Shown here in pieces: positions 34,324 through 64,000 of a stretch of DNA of 64,000 bases. Source of the DNA: Octopus vulgaris. Taxonomy: Eukaryota. The DNA is taken from positions 930,001-994,000 of the forward strand of contig OX597815.1 of the NCBI GenBank assembly GCA_951406725.2, read 5' to 3'. Each line of letters opens with the position of its first letter. The first letter of the stretch is position 1. The notes under the pieces are model-generated. The model was not told the DNA's origin. It saw only the letters and a program-made list of their open reading frames with translations, and made no database searches. Both the position numbers and the translations under genes were made by a program.

Positions 34324-34744
34324 CTGAAATTAGAAAATTTCCTCTGTTAGTAATAAACATTTTACACACACACACACAGACATGCACTTTATATATACAC
34401 GTTGAAGAGAAGATTGGAGCTGTGTATATTTTGTGAAGGGAAAAACCAAACCAATATTTGATGGGATGAGGCTCAGAAGCACGAAGTGTTGCAGATTGTA
34501 GCAGAGAAAATCATGAAGCTGTGGGTGAGAAGGGTGTGAAGGGTGATTCTGAAAACAAAGAAACTCTGAGGTGTCTCTATGGAAGGTCATATGTGGAGGT
34601 TGCGTAGGAGAAAACCATTCTTCCCAGTGTGAATCCTAATGTGGAGGGATCTGCCTATGGCTCTGATAATAGAGAAAATGCTAAAAGTGGCAGCCAAATA
34701 ACTCAAATTCTAAGAGGTATCCCCCAGTGAACTGTCTGTGTGAA

Positions 34745-35142
34745 TATATGTATGTATATATATATGTATATATGTATGTGTATATACATATATATACGTA
34801 TATATACATATATATATACGTACACATATATATATACACACATATATATATATATATATATACACATATATATATACACACATATATATATATACATACA
34901 CATATATATACATATATACGTACACATATGTACACACACATATATATATACATATATATATATACATACATATATATATACATATATACGTACACATATG
35001 TACACACACACATATATATATACATATATATATATACATACATATATATATACATATATACATATACATACATATATATATACATATATACATACATATA
35101 TACATATATATATACATATATACATACATATATACATATATA

Positions 35143-35174
<32 letters not shown>

Positions 35175-35372
35175 CATACATATATACATATATATATATA
35201 CATACATACATATATATATATATACATACATATATATATATATACATACATATATATATATATACATACATATATATATATATACATACATATATATATA
35301 TATACATACATATATATATATATATACATACATATATATATATACATACATATATATATATATATACATACA

Positions 35373-35414
<42 letters not shown>

Positions 35415-35486
35415 CATACATATATATATATATATACATACATATATATATATATATACATACATATATATATATATACATACATA

Positions 35487-35542
<56 letters not shown>

Positions 35543-35553
35543 CATACATATAT
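34745..35553. repeat. (TA)n/(TACA)n compound microsatellite
   Basis: Read directly from the sequence. A smaller tract lies at 33814-33967. Confidence 0.97.
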
Positions 35554-38500
35554 ACTTTGATACTTTGATACTTTGATAGGTTTCGGCCATTATTGGCCCA
35601 GGCCATGTCTAACTTAATAGCACCACCTGGTGAAGTCTTTCAAGTCAGAATTTGGGCACTATGGCCCACTCAAGTAGAGAGTTATTGTTTACAGAGACAT
35701 ATCCGGGTGTAGGGGGTTTATCCGGGATTTCTTGAAGGAATCTGTCCAAAGACTTCTTGAACCCTATAGGGTCAGTTTCTGTTTTAATGTGTTTTGGTGT
35801 AATGTTAAAGAGAGCGGGGCCAATTGAGGTGAAATAATTGTGCCGTATTGTTGTTATGAGATGAGAGTGCGATTTTTGTTTTGGGCGGATGGCACGGGGC
35901 CCAAGCCTTGGATGTACCTTAAAGGTGATGCCAACATCATTTGGGCAATGCTGATGGAATATTTTCCACATCATGCAGATGATGTAGCGCTCACGACGAC
36001 GTTGGAGAGAATAGAGTTTTAGCTTTTCTAGCCGACCCCAATAGTCGAGGCCTGTCATGCCATCTATCTTTTTTGTGATTGCCCTTTGAGGTGCTTCAAC
36101 TTTTATGATACCTTGTATTGTGTGGGGAGACCACAGTGGACAAAGTATTCAAGGTGGGGTCGGGCAAAAGTGGAGAAGAGAAGGATAATGGTGTGGATAT
36201 CTCTCGACTGGAAAGTTCTGAGAATCCAGGAACACATTCTGTGGGCCATGTCAACTTTGGTGTTTATATGAGTGGCCCAGCTTACGTTGTTGTCCACAAT
36301 TACTCCCAAGTCTCTGATGTTGTTGGACGCCGCGAGAGTTTCACCTGAAGGAAGGGAGTATGGGAGTTTCAGGGCATCCTCTTTACCAAAGTGGATTAGC
36401 TCAAATTTATCCTCGTTCAGCAGCATATTGTTTTTTTCTGCCCATTGGATAACAGCCAGTAGATCTGACTGAAGGCATGTCCGGTCACTCGCCTCATTTA
36501 TGACCTTCTGTAGCTTGGAGTCATCTGCAAAGATTTTTATGTTGCTGTGCTTGATGATGTCATTAATGTCATTAATGTAAATGATGAAAAGAAGTGGGCC
36601 CAGCACAGTGCCTTGCGGAACGCCACTACTGACTTTGGCTGGGCTTGATTTTACCCCTTCAACTACAACATGTTGAGATCTGTCTGTCAGGAAACACTTA
36701 ATCCATTTCAGTAACTTTCCAGAGACACCAATGTTGGATAGTTTTTACAATAGGATCTTGTGATCGACCCTGTCGAAGGCCTTACTGAAATCAAGGTAGA
36801 TGACATCGGTGTTGGAGCCCTCTCCCAAAGCTCTCAAAATGTCCTCAAAGTGATGCAGGAGCTGCGTTAGGCAGTCCCTTCCATTACGGAACCCATGTTG
36901 GTTGGAGATCAGCCGTCTGTTGCTTTCCAGGAATTGGGTTATTCGAGATCTCACCACCCTCTCAAATACCTTGATGATATGAGAGGTGAGTGAGATCGGA
37001 CGGTAATTCACTGCAAGGGACTTGTTTCCCTTTTTGAAAACTGGGACAACAGACTGGGACAGAAGGTTTTTGGAATATAGCCAGCATCCAGTGAGTTTCT
37101 CCACAGATTAGCAAGGGGAGATGCAAGTTGGTGTCGACACACCTTCAGGACACAAGCAGGGAACCTATCGGGGCCTACTGCTGAATTGTGTTTTATTTCG
37201 TTTATCGCCGCTAAGACATCAGGGGCACTAAACGTTATGTCCGATATAGTGTGTTGGGGGTTGACATCACTGATACAGCCCAGATCGGCCATATCAGGAT
37301 TGCTGAAAACAGAGCAGTATTGTTTCTGCAGTATCTCGGCCATGGATTTGGCATTATCTTGGAGAGTGCCAGTTTCGTCAATTAGAGGGCCTACAGTGGA
37401 GACAGTGACCCTGCGTTTCCTCGCAAATGAAAAGAACACTTTGGGGTTGAGTTTGATTTTTTCAATGGCCCACTTCTCCTCAGCTGATCTTTGGTTATTG
37501 ATGAGGGTCTTCATGCATTGTTGGAGGTTATATTTTTTGGATTCAAGCAGTGCGATAGCCGTCGAATGTGTGTGTTGCTGTTGGCAGTACTTTAGTTTGT
37601 TAATTTTTTTGTTTGTTCTTTTTATTTTTCTGATAATGGTTTTTCTGTTTTGGGGGATTCTGCACTTTTTGTTCACAGGTCTTGGTGGGGAGTGTTTTGC
37701 ACATATGTCTGTGACGGTGTCTACAAAGATCTGCCAAGATGTTTTATGGTTGGTGGAGATGTGTGTATGTGTAAAGGACCAGTCAACATGTGATAGCTCG
37801 TTTCTGATTGCATCCCAGTTGGCTTTATGGAGATCCATGTTGTCAAATGGGTGGGCTGGAGGAAGGTCACTAGGATTAGCTTTCGGCTGGTGGAATTTCA
37901 TGTTACAGAGAACCATGTCATGGTCTGAAAGAAGGGTTTTTTCCACTGTAACGTTATGTATAGTGTTAGTGTGGTTACTAAACACTAGGTCCAAAATGTT
38001 CTGATGTCTTGTTGGTGCAAGGACAAGTTGGGACAAGAAAAACTCATTCGTAAAGTCGAAAAGTGACTCTGCTGCTTCTTTGTCAGCGGTTGAGGCGGGA
38101 GTGCTTGGTTTCAAACAGTTTGTAGTCCAGTCAACACAGGGTAGATTGAAGTCTCCCATCATGAGTATGTTGCTAGAATGGCACTGTTGAATAAAGCACT
38201 TAATGCTGTTGAGGCATTCTTTAAAGCACAGTATGGGTGTTTGGGGCGGCCTATAGAGCCCAATTACTGTCAGGTCATTGGCTTTGTTGTGCACGGTGAC
38301 TGATTCACAGTAGCCATTGGAGAATATACTATTTCCATCTGCCGTAAATGAATCATGCAGGAAAATGGCAGTTCCACCCTTCCTCCTGCCGATACGATCC
38401 GCGCGGATGGTTGTGAAATTCTTCACTCTCACTTCGGCTTCCAAGTGGGAGTTGTCAAGGTGGGTCTCAGTGAGAATGAAGAAAGGGATGTGGTGTGAAT

Positions 38501-39636
38501 GGTTACCAACCCAGTCTTCAATGAATTGGACCTTCCATTTTTGTGTATTGATGGAAGGGCTGACACCTTGTGCATTGAGTAGGAATGTGGAGGTTAGTGT
38601 AGTGGCTGGTTTTGACTGTTGCAGGGGGCTTGGATTTTTTGTGTGTGTTAGTGGCAGCAATGTGGGGAATTGATGCACTGGGTTAATAGCATAGGATGGT
38701 GTTGAGTGATGGCTAGAATGTTTTTGTGTATCTCTTTTGCCATGTTCAACATGGCTAAAAGAATTTTCCTGCTTAGGGAGCAGTTTTTGGCTGGAGGTGT
38801 GGTTGCACTGTTGGATAGGGTTGTAGTTTCCACTTTTGTTGTTGTTGTTTTTGTGTCTTCCTGAAAAGACTGGACCAGCATTACTGCAGCATGGTGTGTT
38901 TCTATTTTTATTGTTATTCAGGTTTGTGTGTTGGCTTGAGGCCCCGTTTCTGTTTGTGCGTCGGGTCCCTGGAAGATGAGTGAAGGGACAGTCACTCAGT
39001 AGACATGTTCTCTCACGTTGGGAATACCGGCAGATTTTGGGACTCCGAGTTGTGTGTGTTTTGAATTTCGATTTACTATTTGGTGGTGTTGATGTTATTG
39101 TGGGATGCGTGCTTTGGCCTTGGCTGGTAGTGCGTCTAGTGCCGGGTAGATGCGTGAAGATGCAGTCACTATTTGTGCAGAGTCTCTGGCGCAGTGAATA
39201 GCGGCATATTTGGGGATTTCTTGTTTGTGCCGTGGGGGGCGCATTCTGCTTCCTATGTTTCTTTAAGTTTTTGTTACTGCAGTAGTATTGAGGTGGTGAT
39301 GTGGGGGAAGAGGGCAGTGGTTTCTTATTTGGTTTTCTGTTGGTATTTTTGGTGATAGAAGACGATGGTGGCAGCGGTGGTGATGATGATGATGATAATT
39401 GTGGTGGTTGCTGTGAGAGCAGTGAAAAGATACTGGCATTTAGTGAATCATCTAGTAAGCTAGAGTTGAGGAGTGGCTGTTGTTGTTCTTGTTGCTGTGG
39501 CTGTTGTTGTTGTTGTTGTGCCTGACCAATGTCAGGGATATATATACATACATACATACATATATATATATATACATACATACATATATATACATATATA
39601 CATATACATACATACATATATATATATACATACATA

Positions 39637-39668
<32 letters not shown>

Positions 39669-40342
39669 CATATATATACATACATATCAGCCATTGTGCT
39701 GGGAACCAGGAGTGGCTCATTCTGTTGTTGTTGTTGTTGTGGCTGCTGATTTTCTAGCTGTTGTTGTTCTTGAACTGTGAAAATATGAAGAAGCTTTTCA
39801 AAATGGCCTCTTATCAGTTTGAAAGATACTTCGATATGTTTCAACTTGCTACGAATCTGTTTGACGGATCGTGTGTTGACCACTTGTGATGTTTTTTCGG
39901 CAATCTCATTCAAACACAAGACATTTAGATTTTCTGTTTGGGAAAGAGAGAGCCATGTGTTTATTAAAACATCAATTTCGTTATCAGACCAATTTCGTCT
40001 GTTGCAGGCCTGCAAGTTAGTCATGTTTGTTTTTCTTTTGTTTGTTTTCCTTTTGATTTTTGAAAATATATATATTCTTTCTTGGGAGTTAAAGAAGTGT
40101 ATATATATATAAATGTTCTCTCTTAAGGGTGTGAGTTTTTGATTATTTGGTTGTTTGAGGATATTAAAAGAAAAACAGGTGTATATAACAATTTGTAGTT
40201 AAATGAAAACGTACTTACAGGTTTGTAGGCAAACACGTGGTTACAAATATATATATATTTAAGGTCAGTTAGTTTTAAAGATGTGTAGCTTGCTACTGAC
40301 TTGGGAGAGAAACAAATAGACGTCCATCCACTTCAACAGTTA
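35553..40342 (-). mobile_element. Near full-length CR1/L2-group non-LTR retrotransposon in an ANO8 intron
   Basis: 5' UTR 40025-40342, coding 40024-35645, short 3' UTR with hairpin, and (TATCAAAG)3 tandem tail at 35553-35578. Confidence 0.92.
35645..40024 (-). pseudogene. LINE polyprotein: Myb/SANT-like N-terminus, polyQ, 2x CCCH zinc fingers, APE endonuclease, reverse transcriptase; broken by a microsatellite and ~3-4 frameshifts
   Basis: RRNWSDNEIDVLINTW...RSVKQIRSKLKHI; ICRYSLRQRLCTNSDCIFTHLPGTRR and a second copy; APE motifs LNAQG, LTETHL, LYRPP, GDFNLP, LDLVF, SDH; RT motifs NYRPISLTS, QHGFR, YLDFSKAFDRV, GVPQGTVLGPLLF, FADDSK; C-terminal LYSLQRRRERY. Confidence 0.9.
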
Positions 40343-44056
<3,714 letters not shown>

Positions 44057-45499: not shown

Positions 45500-46786
45500 A
45501 TAAAATCCTTAAAAAATCCTTAAAAATGTTTTAGCCCGAAGGCCGCGGCCATGCTGGGGCACCACCGCTGAATGAGCTACACTAGTTTGTGAATCCACCT
45601 CTGATACGTGGCACTTGATCAACAAGGAGTTCGATGCTGCTGCCCGCATCCGTGTCTCCTGTCGTGAGGTAGGTTCATCTGGGACTCCCAACAAGAAGAG
45701 ATCCAGTTTAGTTTTAAAGAAACCCACATCCACACCATGTAAGTCTCTCAGGCATTTAGGGAGGATGTTGAAAAGCTGTGGTCCTCTGAAACCCAAGCTG
45801 TTGCAGTATCTGGACCTGTATTTTGATGGTGATGTTGGAATCCTTGGCACCACGCAGCGGCGCCCCGTTCTGCGGTTGGAGTAACTTTGAATGCCAAAGT
45901 TTGGGACAAGACCCTCCAGGATTTTCCAGATGTATATTACTGCATATCTCTCCCGCCTCCGCTCCAGGGAGAAGAGGTTTAATACCTTCAGTCTTTCCCA
46001 GTAGCTGACATTTTGCATTGAGACGATTTTCTTTGTGTAGCTTCTCTGAGTTGCTTCGAGTTCTGCTGTTTGTTTTATATTGTGTGGTGACCAAAGTTGG
46101 GAGCAGTAGTCCAAGCGGCTGAGGACAAATGTTTTCCATAGGACCATCAGTGTCTCCTTCTCTCTTGTTCTGAAAGTTCGGAGAATCCATCCAGCTAGCC
46201 GTCTGCATTTTATCACCAGATTAGCAATATGCATTTGGAAAGATGCATCATTGCTCATGTCAATGCCCAGGTCACGCACTGATTTTGACTCAGGGATTGC
46301 AATTCTTCCTGGGCCAGTGTATCCAGTCTTCACGTCATTTACCTTTGTGTGCCAGTAGCGCAGGGCCTGGAACTTACCTGCATTAAACTGCATGTTGTTG
46401 TCCTCAGCCCACCTGTATATTGTGTCCAGCTCATGTTGCAGATGCGCAATATTTTCAGGGTTCTGTATTGCGTGGGAGACCTTTGTGTCATCTGCATAGC
46501 TAGCAAGGGTGGTCATCGTAGCAACTGAAGGCATGTCTGAAAGGGCCACTATGAACATCAGTGGCCCCAAGACAGTGCCCTGTGGGACACCGCTTGTTAT
46601 TTGCGTTTCCCTGGAGGTGGCTCCATTGCTCACAACTGCCTGTTTTCTGTCTTTTAGGAAGTTGTGCAGCCACTCTCCAAGTTTCCCGCCTATGCCGAGA
46701 CCACGCAGTTTGTGACAGATCATACCATGGTCGACTTTATCAAAGGCTTTTGCAAAGTCAAGATATATTACATCCACATTTGAGCC
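45500..46786 (-). mobile_element. 5'-truncated CR1/L2-group LINE with an uninterrupted RT/C-terminal ORF (45509-46777, 422 aa)
   Basis: [69 protein letters not shown]. No internal stops. 3' end ggtggtgccccagcatggccgcggccttcgggctaaaac followed by a short (AGGATTTTTTA) tandem tail. Confidence 0.93.
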
Positions 46787-46798
46787 ATAAAGCTACGT

Positions 46799-46883
46799 TT
46801 CCCAAGCATAGGGCCGGAAATCGAATCCAGGCCGCCGCGGTCGAAATCCATGCTGGGAATCCTAACCACTAGACCACTTGGGA
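46799..46883 (-). other. tRNA-Glu-derived sequence (Pol III-type head) fused to the LINE; not a canonical tRNA
   Basis: TCCCAAG TGGTCTAGTGGTTAGGATTC...CCGCGGCGGCCTGGATTCGATTTCCGG...CTTGGGAA parallels metazoan tRNA-Glu (TCCCTGGTGGTCTAGTGGTTAGGATTC...GGGTTCGATTCCCGGTCAGGGAA), with extra bases in the anticodon arm and before the acceptor 3' strand. Confidence 0.75.
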
Positions 46884-50091: not shown

Positions 50092-51400
50092 CTGCAAGAA
50101 AAGGAAAACTAGGAATGAAAGAACAAATCAATCACTGAGCTTCTATGTTGTCCATTAGTGGTGGTGGTGGCGGTGGAGGAGAAGCGTCTCAAAGAGGTTT
50201 ACAATATTGACTTAGAAAATGTTAGAAATTTTTGGTTGGTTCCAAGTGAGACATACATAACCATGTCTCCTATCAGACCACATCACTGCAGCATATGTGA
50301 CGATGGAGTTCTTTCTTTTCATGGTTAAAATTTTCTAAACTCGAAACATCTTTATTATTAATTTCTATGAAAAATGGATTTTTGTCATTTGTAGAAAAGT
50401 TTAGGAAAATCTAAAGGTGGGAACAAAACCATGAAGATGTATATTGCAATGGTTGATCTGCTAGCAATAGCAGCCAAATACCCTTTCAATTATGTTCTGC
50501 TGTCCTATTGGCAGGAAAAACCTCCCAAACTTTACATGACCGTTAGTGTGGTGCTAGGAAAGTTAGGCAGATGATGGTAATGGCATCTTTACCAAGCTAA
50601 TGTTTTACCATTTCTTTCCAGTTACCATTCTGGTTTGGACTGGGGCATTGCACAATGGTGTTTGCTGCTGAAGTGTTTATCATGAATGATGTATGTGAGA
50701 TTTTTTTGGCTGCAGAACATAATAATTATAATCTGAAAGGGTGAGATGGTCACAGCTGGAATGTCTTTGATCATAGGTCTGCTGAATAAGGGTTAGCCAG
50801 GGGTTAAACAACAACAAAAACCAGGAAGGATTTTGATGAAGTTTGATGATTTAGGGACAGAGGGGAAAATTTATAGTTATAGGGTCCAGAATTCCTTCTA
50901 GAGTAAAAAAAACCTTGATAGAGTTGAAGTAAAGTTAGGGGTCTTTATAAATTTGAAGGGTGTTGGATTAGTAATTGCATGGAAATATATGAAGGAATTG
51001 GAATGGTGTACATACAGAGGGGATTGTATTTAAGGGGTTAATTGTAAGGGAAAATGTAGCGAGAGGTTAGGGGACAAAAGTGGACATTGAGAGGCCAAAA
51101 ACGAATAAGAAAATACTAAGGATTGATGACATGATAGGGGTCAGCAACACTCAGAAAGAAGACAAATATTGATATTTGGAAGAAGGAAGATGAGGGGGAG
51201 AGAGAGAGAGAGAAGATGAGAAAGAGAGAGAGAAGATGAGGGGGAGAGAGAGAGAAGAATGTATGTAGTCAGAAAATGGAGATTGGGGTGTTTGGTGAAT
51301 ATTATGGTTCGTCACAGAAGGATTGGTATTTTGAAGTATGTGAAGAAGAAATGGTGGTGGTGGTGGTGGTGGTAGTGGTGAATGTATATCTAGTTCTTAC

Positions 51401-51817
51401 CTCACTCATCGTACTTTCAACTTCAGCTTGACTCGGTGAGTTCCCAGCTGAAGCTTTGCGAGGGGGCAGTTCCATACGGTCCCTATTGTCAGACAAATCC
51501 CCAATCAAAGATTTTTCATCTTCATTTTCAGGATTGTTCCCTGCAGTTTTTTCTTCACTGCTTTCTTGCTGATCAGCCGTTTCATTTGTGTTGGTCATCT
51601 CTGGAGTGAGATGTTCCTCTTCTTCCGCCGATGCTTCAGAGTTGCAGGGTTTTTTATTCTCTGTATTTAATGGAAGTTCACCACATTCCTTCTCTGGTGA
51701 TTCCACTGTTGTGATCAGTCCGGCTTTTATCATACGAAAGTGCCACATCAGATATGGTAACAAAGCTTCTTTCACATTTCCGATAATTTGGCGCATTATT
51801 AGAAGAGCCATCAGTTG
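51401..51817 (-). CDS. ANO8: Anoctamin-8-like exon with acidic cytoplasmic loop
   Basis: tttcAG|, QLMALLIMRQIIGNVKEALLPYL...EEEEH...SQAEVESTMSE, |GTAAGA. 417 nt, phase 0/0. Confidence 0.9.
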
Positions 51818-52417
51818 CTGAAATGATAAAAGGAAATGATGAATGCCATCACAAGTCACTGAAGAATTTGAAAGATCTAAAGGTTAGCCTTAAATCTAAA
51901 CACAGCAATAGAGGTGAATCCACATATCTATATCTATCTATATATATATACACAGAGACACACACACACACCTCCACAAAACGATCATAGAAAGTGTGAC
52001 CCCAAATGACATTTGTCCGGCCAGCCTACGCACAACACACACTCAGTGACACGAGACTGGACAGAGAGTAGAGCCAAAATTCTTAGAAAACCACAGGAGG
52101 TCCAGTAGGCCAACGGAAATAATACTTCTTCTTCCCTCTCAGATACAAACACACACACACACATACACATACACACATGTTTTCTCTGTCTCACTTCCTC
52201 CTCACCCTTTTATACTGTCTTATTCCTCCCCACTACTACGAAACTATAAAATGTTCAAATTCCCCACAAAGGAATTGATTTGATTTGAAAACCCCACTGG
52301 ATTGGGAGAAAGCGCTAATCCGAATGATATGATCTGAATGATATGATATATATGTAAAAAATGTAATATATAAATAAATATCTATAAATATGAACCATCC
52401 GATCTGATTACCTCATT

Positions 52418-53914: not shown

Positions 53915-54374
53915 CTGAAAAGAAATGTTCAAATATTGTAATAAACATTTAATGCTACTACTACTACTATTACTACTACTACTACTACTACGAATAATAA
54001 TAATAAATAATAATACTTCTTTCTATAACAGGAACAAGAGCTGAAATTTTGGGGGAGGTTGGTTAGTTGATACCAGAACACAACTGGTACTTTCTCTGGT
54101 GTGAAAGGATGAAAAGCAGAGTTGACCTCAATGGAGTTGGAATTCAGAATGTAAAGACAGACAAAATACCGCAAAGCATTTTGCTCAGGAAGGTAACAAT
54201 TCTGCCAACTCACCAGAATAATAATAATAATAATAATAATAATACACAAATAAATAGAAGAGTACCATATCATGTGAAATTTGTTGAACAGTATTTCGGC
54301 ATCTAGTCTGCCTTCCACAGGTTCAAAAATTACATGTCAGTCAACTTCATACACAAATACACATGGAAACACTT

Positions 54375-57300
54375 CAAACAATTCACCAATACGTCAAACA
54401 ATTCACCAACACATCAAACAATTTCCCAATACATCAAACAATTTCCCAATACATCAATTCACCAACACGCCAAACAATTCACCAACACGCCAAACAATTC
54501 ACCAACATGCCAAACAATTCACCAACATGCCAAACAATTCACCAACATGCCAAACAATTCACCAACACGCCAAACAATTCACCAACATGCCAAACACTGC
54601 ACCAACACGTTAAACACTTCAACACGTCAAACATTTCACCAACACATCAAACATTTCACCAATACATCAATTTACCAACACATCAAATAATTCACCAACA
54701 CGTTAAACACTTCACCAAAACGTCAAACGATTCACCAATATACCAACACGTCAAACAATTCTCCAACACGTTAAACAATTCAACAACACATCAAACAATT
54801 CAGCAATACATCAATTCACCAACACGTTAAACAATTTGCCAACACATCAAACAATTCACCAATACATCAATTCACCAACACGTTAAACAATTCAACACAT
54901 CAAACAATTCACTAATACATCAATTCACCAACACGTCAAACAATTCTCCAAAACGTTAAACAATTCACCAACACGTCAAACAATTCACCAACACGTTAAA
55001 CAATTTGCCAACACATCAAACAATTCACCAACACGTTAAACAATTCACCAACATGTTAAACAATTCACCAACACATCAAACAATTCACCAACACATCAAA
55101 CAATTCACCAACATGTCAAACAATTCTCCAACACGTTAAACAATTCACCAATACATCAATTCACCAACACGTTAAAAAATTCACCAACACATCAAACAAT
55201 TCATCAATATGCCAAACAATTCTCCAACACATCAAACAATTCACCAACATGCCAAACAATTCAACAACACGTTAAACAATTTGCCAACACGTAAAACAAT
55301 TCACCAACACGTTAAACAATTCACCAACACATCAAACAATTCACCAACACACCAAACAATTCACCAACACGTCAAACAATTCACCAACACGTTAAACAAT
55401 TCACCAACACATCAAACAATTCAGCAACACGCCAAACAATTCAACCAACACGTTAAACAATTCACCAACATGTCAAACAATTCTCCAACACATTAAACAA
55501 TTCACCAATACATCAATTCACCAAAACGTTAAACAATTCGCCAACATGTTATACAATTCACCAACACGTCAAACAATTCACCAACACGCCAAACAATTCA
55601 CCAACATCATCATCATCATCATCATCGTCGGTTAAACAATTCACCAACACGTCAAACAATTCCCCAGTGCATTAAACAGTTTGCCAACACATCAAACAAT
55701 TCACCAACACTTTAAACAATTCACCAATATGCCAAACAATTCACCAACACGCCACACAATTCACCAACACGTTAAACAATTCAAAACGTTAAACAATTCA
55801 CCAGCACGTTAAACAATTCACCAACACGCCAAACAATTCACCAACACACCAAACAATTCACCAACACGTTAAACAATTCACCAATACTTTAAACAATTTA
55901 TCAACACATCAAACAATTCACCAACACGTCAAACAATTCACCAACACGCCAAACAGTTTACCAACACATCAAACAATTCACCAATACATCAATTCACCAA
56001 CATGTCAAACAATTCAACATGAACAATTCACCAACACGTTAAACAATTCACTAACACATCAAACAATTCACCAACACGTCAAACAATTCAACATGAACAA
56101 TTCACCAACACATCAAACAATTCACCAATACATCAATTCACCAACACGTCAAACAATTCACCAACACGTTACACAATTCACCAACACATCAAATAATTCA
56201 CCAACTCGCCAAACAATTCACCAACACGTCACACAATTCACCAACACATCAAACAATTCACCAATACATCAATTCACCAACACGTCAAACAATTCACCAA
56301 CACAAACAAGTTGCCAACACATCAAACAATTCACCAATACATCAATTCACCAACACGTTAAACAATTCACCAATACATCAATTCACCAACACGTTAAACA
56401 ATTCACCAATACATCAATTCACCAACACGCCAAACAATTCACCAACACGTTAAACAATTTGCCAACACATCAAAGAATTCGCCCATACATCAATTCATCA
56501 ACACGTTAAACAATTCACCAATACATCAATTCACCAACACGTCAAACAATTCACCAACACAAACAAGTTGCCAACACATCAAACAATTCACCAATACATC
56601 AATTCACCAACACGTTAAACAATTCACCAATACATCAATTCACCAACACGTTAAACAATTCACCAATACATCAATTCACCAACACGCCAAACAATTCACC
56701 AACACGTTAAACAATTTGCCAACACATCAAAGAATTCGCCCATACATCAATTCATCAACACGTTAAACAATTCACCAATACATCAATTCACCAACACGCC
56801 AAACAATTCACCAACACGTTAAACAATTCACCAACACATGAAACAATTCAACAACACGTTAAACAGTTCACCAACACATCAAACAATTCACCAACACATC
56901 AAACAATTCTCCAACACGTTAAACAATTCACCAACACATCAAACAATTCACCAATACATCAATTCACCAACACGCCAAACAATTCACCAACACGTTAAAC
57001 AATTCACCAACACATGAAACAATTCACCAACACATCAAACAATTCACCAACACATCAAACAATTCTCCAACATGTTAAACAATTTACCAATACATCAATT
57101 TACCAACACAAGAACCACTTCAAGAATATGTCAAACAATTCACCAACACAAAGAATTCACCAACACGTCAAACAATTCAACAATGTGTGAAACAATTCAC
57201 CAATATGGTCTCAAAAATTTGTCCTACAAAGAGAGGCTGAGGACGCTCGACCTTTATTCTCTTGAAAAACGCCGCCGCCATGGTGATCTCATTCTCGCCC

Positions 57301-59600
57301 ACAACATCATAAGCGAGAAGTGTAACCTCTTGAAAGAGCTGTTCTTCACTCCTGCTTCGGAGCGTCGGCTGCGGGGTCATTCCGAAAAGCTCTACCTGCG
57401 ACGATTTCATCTCAATCGAAGGAGAGGAGCTTTCTCCGTCCGGGTTGCGGATCCGTGGAACAAGCTGCCAGACGAGATGGTGAAGATGCCGACGACCGCT
57501 TTGTTCAAACAATTCACCAATACATCAATTAACCAACACGTCAAACAATTCACCAATACATCAATTCACCAACACAAACAATTTGCCAACACATCAAACA
57601 ATTCACCAATACATCAATTCACCAACATGCCAAACAATTCACCAACACGTTAAAAAATTCACCAACACATGAAACAATTCACCAACAGGTTAAATAATTC
57701 ACCAACACGTTTGACAATTCACCAACACGTTAAAAAATTCACCAATACATCAATTCACCAATATGCCAAACAATTCACCAACACGTTAAACTATTCATCA
57801 ACATGCCAAACAATTCACCAACACGTTAAACAATTCACCAACACGTTAAACAATTCACCAACACATCATACAATTCACCAACACGTCAAACAATTCACCA
57901 ATACATCAATTCACCAACACGCGAAACAAATCACCAACACGTTAAACAATTTACCAACACAAGAAGCACTTCAAGAATACGTCAAACAATTTACCAACAC
58001 ATCAAACAATTCACCAACACATCAAAGAATTCAACACGTCAAACAATTCAACAATACGTGAAACAATTCACCAACACATCAAACAATTCACCAATACATC
58101 AATTCACCAACACACCAAACAATTCACCAACATGTCAAACAATTCAACACGAACAATTCACCAATACATCAATTCACCAACACGTTAAACAATTTGCCAA
58201 CACATCAAACAATTCACCAAGACGCCAAACAATTCACCAATACATCAATTCACCAACACGTCAAACAATTCACCAACACGTTAAACAATTTGCCAACACA
58301 TCGAACAATTCACCAATACATCAATTCACCAACACGTCAAACCATTCACCAATACATCAATTCACCAACACAAACAATTTGCCAACACATCAAACAATTC
58401 ACCAACACGTTAAACAAGTTGCCAACACATCGAACAATTCACCAATACATCAATTCACCAACACGTTAAACAATTTGCCAACACATCAAACAATTCAACC
58501 ATACATCAATTCACCAACATGTTAAACAATTTTCCAACACATCAAACAATTCACCAATACATCAATTCACCAACACATTAAACAATTCACCAACATATCA
58601 AATAATTCACCAACACGTCAAACAATTCACCAACAGGTTAAATAATTCACCAACACATCAAACAATTCACCAACACGTTTGACAATTCACCAACACGCCA
58701 AACAATTCAGCAACACGTTAAACAATTCACCAATACATCAATTCACCAATATACCAAACAATTCACCAACACATTAATCTATTCATCAACATGCCAAACA
58801 ATTCAGCAACACGTCAACACATTAAACAATTCACCAACACATCAAATAATTCACCAACACACTAAAGAATTCACCAACACGTTAAACGATTCACCAACAC
58901 CTTTGACAATTCACCAACACGCCAAACAATTCACCAACACGTTAAACAATTCACCAATGCATCAATTCATCAACACTCTAAACAATTCACCAATACATTA
59001 AACAATTCACAAACACATCAAACAATTCACCAACACGTCAAACAATTCACCAACACGTCAAACAATTCACCAACACGTCAAACAATTCACCAACACGTCA
59101 AACAATTCAACAACACGTCAAACAATTCAACAACACGTCAAACAATTCACCAACACATCAAACAATTCACCAACACGTCAAACAATTCACCAACACGTCA
59201 AACAATTCACCAACACGTCAAACAATTCACCAACACATCAAACAATTCAACAACACATCAAACAATTCACCAACACGTCAAACAATTCACCAACACGTCA
59301 AACAATTCACCAACACGTCAAACAATTCACCAACACGTCAAACAATTCACCAACACGTCAAACAATTCACCAACACGTCAAACAATTCACCAACATGTCA
59401 AACAATTCACCAATACATCAATTCTCCAACATGCCAAACAATTCACCAACACGTCAAACAATTCACCAACACGTCAAACAATTCACCAACACGTCAAACA
59501 ATTCACCAACACGTCAAACAATTCACCAACACGTCAAACAATTCACCAACACATCAAACAATTCACCAACACGTCAAACAATTCACCAACACGTCAAACA
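54375..59600. repeat. ~5.2-kb satellite, 20-bp unit (CAAACAATTCACCAACACGT) with 16-bp variants
   Basis: Hundreds of tandem units read directly; interrupted at 57207-57505 and 55606-55632. Confidence 0.97.
57207..57505 (+). mobile_element. CR1-type LINE C-terminal coding fragment embedded in the satellite
   Basis: GLKNLSYKERLRTLDLYSLEKRRRHGDLILAHNII...LRGHSEKL...FSVRVADPWNKLP. Confidence 0.88.
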
Positions 59601-59630
59601 AAACATTTGCTAAACCATCAAACCACTCAC

Positions 59631-62639: not shown

Positions 62640-63145
62640 TGTCTGGAAGCCGTTGAGCGATGTGCAACCAAGAGAATACACTCCATCTGAATGCCTTACT
62701 TCCCTGGGCATGGACACATTGAAACTCCAACGTCTGGCAGCTGACTTGGCAGACACCCATAAAATTATTAACCATCTTACCAACAATAACTCTGAGCACC
62801 TTTTCAAATTCCACCCTTCTAACACCCGTGGACATATTTACAAAGTCAGAAAACAGCACAGCTCCCATGACTTTCGGAAACATTTTTTCACGGTAAGAGT
62901 TGCTGAAGCATGGAACAAACTGCCAGCATCAGTTGTTAGTTGTCGGAGCACTGCATCCTTCAAAACTTCCATGCTTCCTGAGATTCGCCAACACTACACC
63001 TGGTTTTCTCCCCTCCATACACACACAAGCATGTATCTGACTCATACATTGTTCACTTCCCAGACATTTGTACATTACTGCATATGCTTTATATGCACTT
63101 TCTGACAAGTTGTGGTGCACCTGAGCACTGTATACAATAATTTTA
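62640..63145 (+). mobile_element. CR1-type LINE 3' end, close to an ANO8 donor site
   Basis: LTSLGMDTLKLQRLAADL...TRGHIYKVRKQHSSHDFRKHFFTVRVAEAWNKLPASVV...SFK followed by 3' UTR and (ATT)n. Confidence 0.85.
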
Positions 63146-63203
63146 TTATTATTATTATAAAATTCTAAAATTGAGAAAATTGGCACAGGACTGCCAGACT
63201 TAC

Positions 63204-63492
63204 CCATGTCATTCAGCCAGTATGCAACTCTGGTGTACATTCGATCGAGTGTGAAGATGGAAACAGCATGGCAAACTTTAGGCAAAACTTTAGCAATGAA
63301 AGCATATTCACCGGTGTTGACTAATTTCGTGATGAGTTCCTCAATGTAAAAGTTGGCCAGCATCACAGCAAATACAATGCAAAGACTTAAGATGACAACA
63401 GGAAGGGTTACAAAGTAGCGGAACAAATTCCTTTTCCATATTGGATAGAATGGTTCCAGCCTTCCAGTGACACTACTTACTTCAAGTTCTCC
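63204..63492 (-). CDS. ANO8: Anoctamin-8 (TMEM16H)-like exon; first exon visible in the window
   Basis: ttgcAG|GGA; GELEVSSVTGRLEPFYPIWKRNLFRYFVTLPVV...YTRVAYWLNDM; donor G|GTAAGT (phase 1). Contains anoctamin transmembrane segments. Confidence 0.9.
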
Positions 63493-64000
63493 CTGCAAAG
63501 AGAAACCGGTCAAGAGAAATTTAAAGAACAAAATTAAGTGGAGGGAGCCTCTCACATTGAAGGGGAAATAAGGAGGAAAAAAGGAATATTAATCCTCATT
63601 TAAAAGCAAAAGTTGTGTTAGAACACAAAATACTGCATTATTTAACTCGAGAGAACCTTTCATATGGACTTGTGATGCATATAAGCACTCTTGTTTATAT
63701 CACTAGCAAGAGATAATCATCTCCTGATACTGCGAGACTTCCAGATCATGTGATTTCAGCCTTCCTTGGCCTTGTTAATAGAAACCTGGCACAGCCTCCT
63801 GGCTTCCCAGACCCCAGTCAAATCGTCCAACCCATGCCACCTTGGAATGCAGACGTTAAACGATGAGGATAATGATGAATATTTTGAGTGAAAACTCTCT
63901 CTCATCAAACTGAAATGAATATTTATACTAGAGTGGAAGACATTCAAAACCATCATCACAACAGTTGTGCAATATCAGACAAAGTTTATTGTTGTCTGGC

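Follow-up and report, generated by a model that had tools for sequence, protein, structure and literature searches.

How the second open reading frame (ORF2) of long interspersed nuclear elements (LINEs) is translated is an open question, and reinitiation is given for L1 and SART1 in passages of PMC3894237, PMC2881922 and PMC5009743. Frameshifting is mentioned elsewhere: HeT-A gag frameshifts according to a passage in PMC5009743, a +1 frameshift is suggested for Paramecium LINEs in part of PMC5405496, and ORF2 of the Dictyostelium elements TRE5-A and TRE3-A is said to require a −1 frameshift in a review legend (PMC5911963). Here we describe a LINE, named family A, from a 64,000-nucleotide (nt) stretch of the Octopus vulgaris genome (assembly GCA_951406725.2, contig OX597815.1, positions 930,001 to 994,000; hereafter the window), where a full-length copy was analyzed on the minus strand. 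In its majority form, family A almost certainly consists of two overlapping ORFs, and its ORF2, which encodes an APE endonuclease and a reverse transcriptase (RT), is probably produced as an ORF1–ORF2 fusion by programmed −1 ribosomal frameshifting.

The element was recognized as a LINE by APE and RT in one ORF, the lack of long terminal repeats (LTRs), a fixed 3′ end with a repeat tail, and variable 5′ truncation. Its RT motifs presumably resemble those of CR1. No RNase H match was detected in Pfam, and the tail unit is 8 bp in family A and 4 bp in its relative, family F. We place the element in the CR1 group from these motifs and the missing RNase H match, the ORF2 tree having been built without named references.

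With the CR1 group (CR1, L2, Daphne, Crack, Kiri, Zenon) the element shares an APE–RT ORF2 without RNase H and a short tandem-repeat tail, and a PHD-like finger is found, with weak scores, in ORF1 of its relatives. In contrast, the ORF1 types in Table 1 of PMC4120745 (RRM+CCHC, Tnp22, PHD, esterase) contain neither Myb nor CCCH, whereas ORF1 of the element carries Myb plus CCCH (families A, B and F) or a Tudor-knot/MBT-like plus PHD-like plus CCCH arrangement. The initial annotation of the locus had suspected an unusual LINE lineage, and the absence of a Myb and CCCH module from the Jockey, CR1 and L2 ORF1 types of that table bears this out. The ORF2 proteins group together as one clade (100/97), and three further CR1-like rows of the same tree fall outside it. 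Zenon was ruled out as the identity of the element, since Zenon is described in part of PMC13343379 as lacking ORF1 and ending in poly-A, while the element has an ORF1 and a tandem-repeat tail. The octopus brain LINE RTE-2_OV is set apart by its description, which in part of PMC9115989 is that of a single 1109-amino-acid (aa) ORF with a C2H2 finger in the RTE clade.

TRE5-A and TRE3-A resemble the element as APE-type non-LTR elements with two ORFs, APE–RT in ORF2, and target-selective insertion. They differ in targeting tRNA genes, ending in oligo(A), and possessing a zinc finger at the C-terminus as well as an ORF1 of unknown function; the element has Myb or Tudor/PHD plus CCCH in ORF1, an 8-bp repeat tail, and a (TA)n target. 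Retroviral and LTR gag-pol systems (HIV-1, umbravirus) offer the same heptamers in the right phase and a structural ORF overlapping an AUG-less enzyme ORF (passages of PMC5009743), but the element lacks protease, integrase and LTRs, and no conserved stem-loop or pseudoknot was found at canonical spacing in a fold scan that did not model pseudoknots. Finally, Naiad and Neptune Penelope-like elements in (TA)n, Togen in (TG)n, and some HERO elements also insert into simple repeats with no discernible target duplication (passages of PMC8557442 and PMC4640811); they use GIY-YIG or restriction-like endonucleases, whereas the element uses APE. Only Tx1 and R1 are named as target-specific APE clades in a passage of PMC4640811.

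The literature search found neither a description of an ORF1 of the reader, CCCH and helix type nor an account of −1 frameshifting among CR1-group LINEs, although Repbase or Dfam may catalogue the families. Motifs of the element were not found in the supplements of PMC4120745 and PMC13343379 or in 12 of the 33 files of PMC10294476, the remaining 21 of which may hold octopus LINE libraries.

Genomic copies and the majority form of family A

A search of the 2.8-Gb host genome revealed hundreds of family A copies at 97–100% identity. An internal 901-bp piece gave 924 first-look candidates, the best 40 of which were 97–100% identical, and the 5′ end gave 321. Among the 39 copies closest to the window copy, 19 differed in the length of a single T-run that lies between the CCCH fingers and APE, and three carried an intact single ORF of 1410 aa. 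A whole-genome exact-pattern search at this junction returned 345 copies, with six T's (T6) in 204 and four (T4) in 18. On contigs C1 and C2, the run could be read in 70 of 71 listed copies (T6 in 45, T5 in 12, T4 in seven, T3 in five, T7 in one); 36 copies there span both ORFs, and the 16 that are otherwise unbroken comprise ten T6, three T5, two T3 and one T4. Contigs from eight runs of eight independent studies all gave T6, with AA inserted behind position 38756; such contigs lose rare variants and so show the majority form only, not rare T-run alleles or expression.

In the T6 copy L049, ORF1 encodes 409 aa and is overlapped over 127 nt by an ORF2 frame of 1043 aa lying one base back. This frame opens 12 nt upstream of T_TTT_TTA, which is the sole strict in-phase heptamer of ORF1 in family A, and its first Met comes 142 codons on, within APE. 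Both APE (PF14529/PF03372) and RT (PF00078) fall within this one frame. The ORF1 tail past the junction is conserved as protein, with an identity between families A and B of 18/24 in frame 0 and 12/25 in frame −1. The two-ORF organization of the majority form is nearly certain. A single polyprotein, which the initial annotation had proposed, is rejected as the family form by the T4 and T6 counts and the eight runs: the majority form carries a frameshift between CCCH and APE, a finding set beforehand as speaking against it. The continuity from fingers to APE holds for the window copy, which is T4, but is not general; likewise, a Myb–CCCH–APE–RT protein is encoded intact by the three similarity-picked copies but is not what the family encodes.

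The in-frame form of the window copy is a recurrent contraction of the T-run. T4 copies were not clustered on a tree comprising 89 of 100 copies (16 changes versus 16.7 ± 1.1 when shuffled), which is a weak, low-power test on a star-like tree. In the window copy's own sub-branch, marked by one single-nucleotide polymorphism (32 carriers, 29 examined, 23 reaching the junction), four copies were T4, eight T5, ten six-letter and one T7; a T4 sub-lineage around the window copy was considered and is not supported, this sub-branch being mixed in run length. The run is unusually unstable, perhaps owing to the adjoining hairpin: 25 of 70 copies depart from T6, whereas the twelve other six- or seven-base runs compared vary in no more than 9 of 67. 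Short runs may be assembly errors or real reverse-transcription slips, and both fit equally. Two copies 28 kb apart, L084 and L085, share the 5′ flank and the truncation point, yet one is T6 and the other T5; such a difference within a duplicated copy favors error or post-insertion change.

Features of the window copy

The element and its surroundings comprise the following features.

35555–40344, minus strand: full-length copy of a young APE–RT LINE (family A), inactivated here; ends set by copy comparison
40025–40344, minus strand: 5′ untranslated region (UTR), about 320 nt; no upstream ATG in copy L049
39809–40000, minus strand: Myb/SANT-like domain at the ORF1 N-terminus (PF13837, 27.8 bits, E 3.5e-6); ATG at 40022–40024
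39538–39686, no strand: (TA/TACA)n insertion of 149 bp, private to the window copy; no target duplication
39150–39206, minus strand: CCCH finger 1, C-x8-C-x4-C-x3-H, by motif; kept in family B
38976–39032, minus strand: CCCH finger 2, C-x8-C-x4-C-x3-H, by motif; kept in family B
38756–38760, minus strand: ORF1/ORF2 junction, T4 (in-frame fusion); family form T6, an in-phase U_UUU_UUA, predicted −1 shift site
38739–38755, minus strand: 7-bp hairpin right behind the heptamer, spacer 0 (−10.0 kcal/mol, z −2.8); can extend by pairing with the T-run
38648–38755, minus strand: ORF1 C-terminal tail (F-L-A-M helix) in the family reading, stop at 38648–38650; dual-coding with the ORF2 head, read from L049
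37917–38585, minus strand: APE endonuclease (PF14529, E 2.6e-15; PF03372, E 3.8e-7) with FLLN, LTETH, YRPP, GDFN, LDL and SDHD motifs
36298–37029, minus strand: reverse transcriptase (PF00078), FADD at 36520–36531
35555–35647, minus strand: ORF2 stop (35645–35647), 3′ UTR and (TATCAAAG)3 tail, by copy comparison
34744–35554, no strand: (TA)n/(TATG)n target array, 3′ flank, by repeat scan
40345–44055, no strand: (TA)n/(TATG)n target array, 5′ flank, by repeat scan

Much of what had been read from the window is upheld, namely a minus-strand LINE, a Myb-like N-terminus (Myb_DNA-bind_4 on residues 9–72, above the cut-off of 27 bits), a polyQ stretch, and the two finger motifs. In this copy the fingers do continue into APE without a change of frame; the further claim of an unbroken passage into RT fails, as the RT frame is disrupted near 37066 by a −1 indel and again by a stop at 36745–36747, with a second −1 indel near 36143. 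Contigs from public runs lack both indels and the stop. Once the microsatellite is removed, the Myb part and the rest form one frame, as proposed, but other copies show the insert to be 149 bp long rather than 146. It is missing from all 37 other copies scored at the site and has a 90-nt exact stretch, on the same strand, in common with the window copy's own 5′ flank, as might result from a template jump or from chimeric assembly.

A predicted −1 frameshift site at the ORF1/ORF2 junction

Six relatives of family A have a readable junction. Family B, from the host genome (APE 71% identical), has the same ORF1 with Myb and two CCCH fingers and the same overlap, with the heptamer in eight of nine copies. 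Family F (33%) has a Myb-like part and one CCCH finger, with T_TTT_TTG in eight of ten copies, and the heptamer of family G (58%) is T_TTT_TTA. Families C, D and E (44–46%) are represented by the four metagenome loci, out of five, that extend to the junction; in these families the −1 overlap spans 280–301 nt, no AUG precedes APE or lies near the stop, and G_GAT_TTT stands at the homologous D-F-L helix. In all seven families, whose APE identities range from 32% to 71%, ORF2 lies in the −1 frame and a slippery heptamer is present at the F-L helix of ORF1: U_UUU_UUA in A, B and G, U_UUU_UUG in F, and G_GAU_UUU in C, D and E. According to a passage in PMC5009743, U_UUU_UUA is the HIV −1 site and G_GAU_UUU the shift site of pea enation mosaic umbravirus.

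We consider it likely that ORF2 is made by programmed −1 frameshifting at U_UUU_UUA, a prediction drawn from sequence comparison. Ribosomes reading ORF1 (Myb, polyQ, two CCCH fingers and a C-terminal helix) would slip back one base at the heptamer and enter the overlapping APE–RT frame, giving an ORF1–ORF2 fusion as a minor product in the manner of gag-pol. A Myb–CCCH–APE–RT fusion would then exist only as the −1 frameshift product of a two-ORF RNA.

The −1 frame is free of stops from the heptamer to the ORF1 stop (33–91 codons) in 7/7 families, compared with 103 stops in 1512 codons upstream, and the last upstream stop in this frame lies 2–16 codons ahead of the heptamer in six of the seven. 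Under a synonymous-codon null, the probability per family was 0.07–0.47 for the open frame and 0.03–0.19 for a slippery heptamer given the amino acids.

Several points weigh against this reading. The families are kin, so that the products of the null probabilities (1.5e-6 and 8.5e-9) overstate the case and serve as indications, not p-values. The slippery rule was widened to the GGA type and to Z=G after the data had been seen, which puts the background at 5/1512; U_UUU_UUG of F is not a strict XXXYYYZ, leaving the strict site to A, B and G. Family G was read from one 5′-truncated copy of 20, the only one to reach the junction, so that its ORF1 N-terminus is not covered, and C, D and E come from four metagenome contigs. 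No conserved stimulator emerged from the fold scan without pseudoknots (z −0.6 to +0.6 in C, D and E). The hairpin of A sits at spacer 0, while the usual spacing of a frameshift stimulator is 5–9 nt, and B has a less marked one (z −2.2). Base-pairing between the shift site and the 3′ UTR ranked 1 of 55 in A, 3–7 in B, and 6–37 in F, G and E, and Rfam at E 1 returned only microsatellite-driven microRNA matches. An in-frame AUG precedes APE in three of the seven families (B, F and G), and the B codon corresponds in the alignment to a CUG of A that lies 7 nt ahead of the ORF1 stop. Lastly, the window copy's sub-branch is richer in short runs than the whole family, and it may have harbored a brief T4/T5 source copy, the star-like tree being low in power.

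Alternative explanations for ORF2 expression

The best-surviving alternative keeps two ORFs but has ORF2 made separately by termination–reinitiation, with the heptamer a by-product of the conserved S/D-F-L helix; we judge it unlikely. Reinitiation could be AUG-independent as in L1, or occur at an AUG or CUG near the ORF1 stop as in SART1, the mechanism being described for both in passages of PMC2881922 and PMC5009743. The aligned AUG and CUG of B and A, the in-frame AUGs of F and G, and the lack of a conserved stimulator speak for it. It leaves unexplained why the −1 frame is open all the way back to the heptamer and closed just before it, and why families 33–45% identical make the same slippery codon choices. 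Moreover, C, D and E offer no AUG before APE or near the stop, and in F and G the ORF1 stop falls within the first APE motif, which is awkward for reinitiation.

Fusion could also arise at the RNA level, through transcriptional slippage in which RNA polymerase II drops or adds U's in the run, and the instability of the run in A would agree with this. Such an origin is very improbable: G_GAU_UUU of C, D and E has four U's only, no run-length change was seen in nine B copies and ten F copies, and an in-frame product requires −2 or +1, but the most frequent change is −1. The instability is explained equally well by errors of sequencing or reverse transcription at the hairpin.

That the active element is one constitutive Myb–CCCH–APE–RT ORF, as first annotated, is scarcely credible, since the three intact copies, the four T4 copies of the 23 in the window sub-branch, and the single-ORF CR1/L2 elements with an N-terminal PHD described in part of PMC4120745 are set against the rarity of T4 in the genome and among otherwise intact full-length copies, T6 in every run, two ORFs in all six other families, and an ORF1 tail conserved as protein beyond the junction.

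Insertion into (TA)n microsatellites

Family A inserts into (TA)n. TA runs adjoin nearly all scorable 3′ ends (58 of 60) and most 5′ ends, both full (29 of 33) and truncated (29 of 37), compared with a background of 174 of 1599 window bins, the comparison being with such bins and not with unrelated LINE families. Truncation at the 5′ side occurs at scattered places in 37 of 70 copies, which have the (TATCAAAG)n tail in common. Because truncated 5′ ends also adjoin TA runs, the repeat represents the target and not a part of the transcript. In family F, TA runs were seen by eye at 19 of 20 3′ ends.

A role of Myb in (TA)n targeting would be hypothetical, because unrelated elements also insert into (TA)n. 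Penelope-like elements, for instance, also prefer (TA)n according to a passage in PMC8557442.

In five copies (L003, L004, L005, L022 and L071), the 5′ junction carries one or two extra copies of the element's first 10–15 bases, as if second-strand joining had been retried.

Relatives and ORF1 domains

The Myb profile (PF13837) scored 27.4 bits in B and 19.7 bits in F, next to the 27.8 bits of A, and the relative P0098 just above the cut-off. The proposed fold check of the Myb part had a mixed outcome: the profile score lies just over the cut-off, and the single-sequence AlphaFold model was weak (pLDDT 64), with no match in Foldseek or in a PDB sequence search. An Atlas search of this part returned Myb/SANT clusters at no more than 0.85, which serve only as a lead. 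Pfam CCCH scores of the fingers were below the cut-off (15.7–20.9 bits).

A profile search with ORF1 found 42 relatives; the finger-bearing ones stand alone, at lengths up to about 500 aa, and none of the 42 is fused to APE or RT. A word-index protein search with ORF1 recovered no relative among 2162 candidates, and scans of GTDB and IMG/VR gave none. Several ORF1 relatives of marine origin have Tudor-knot/MBT-like and PHD-like N-termini in place of Myb, with weak Pfam scores; in P0106, P0118 and P0135 these stand ahead of three CCCH-type fingers.

Among ORF2 relatives, the P0005 cluster (RT 56% identical) contains Gadus morhua and Boreogadus saida proteins that group at 90% with proteins from marine metagenomes, which may reflect horizontal transfer or fish DNA in the samples.

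Family F is very young, its best 40 copies being about 100% identical over 770 nt, and ends in (ATCA)n. Seven of 20 copies (L125–L144) have an intact ORF2 frame of 1039–1040 aa, and L135 has a tandem A+T-rich array upstream of ORF1.

Other features of the window

A 5′-truncated LINE of the same clade (45512–46858, minus strand; 77% identical to family F across 1161 nt at the nucleotide level) lies between two TA arrays. At its 5′ junction stands a short piece that, by eye, resembles tRNA-derived sequence; ARAGORN found no tRNA there. A short repeat at 673–829 matches the 3′ end of family F over about 100 nt (79–92%) and is a candidate short interspersed nuclear element or truncated copy riding on the LINE clade. 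Anoctamin (PF04547) coding pieces were located at 51305–51883 and 62932–63588 (minus strand), and a 5.2-kb array of a 20-bp unit occupies 54368–59601, with a short CR1-like C-terminal fragment near 57600.

Significance

Programmed −1 frameshifting, if correct for family A, would concern a young LINE family of an animal, one whose intact copies are nearly identical and whose defined shift site is kept in seven families. An ORF1 combining a reader domain, CCCH fingers and a helix is absent from the ORF1 catalogue in Table 1 of PMC4120745, and the clade is one of APE LINEs accumulating in the (TA)n arrays of the host genome. It is conceivable, though doubtful, that these elements form an animal-wide LINE clade (an octopus-type genome, marine invertebrate-type contigs and gadid fish relatives) in which a −1 frameshift would weld a swappable reader (Myb, Tudor or PHD) plus CCCH onto APE–RT, ration the enzyme, and tether a targeting domain, with Myb steering insertion into (TA)n. 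Should the frameshift be true, annotation calling a 'single ORF' or a 'broken ORF' at the T-run would be wrong, and the ORF1 domains would travel covalently with APE–RT, which would change how the ORF1 reader domains (Myb, Tudor, PHD) are understood.

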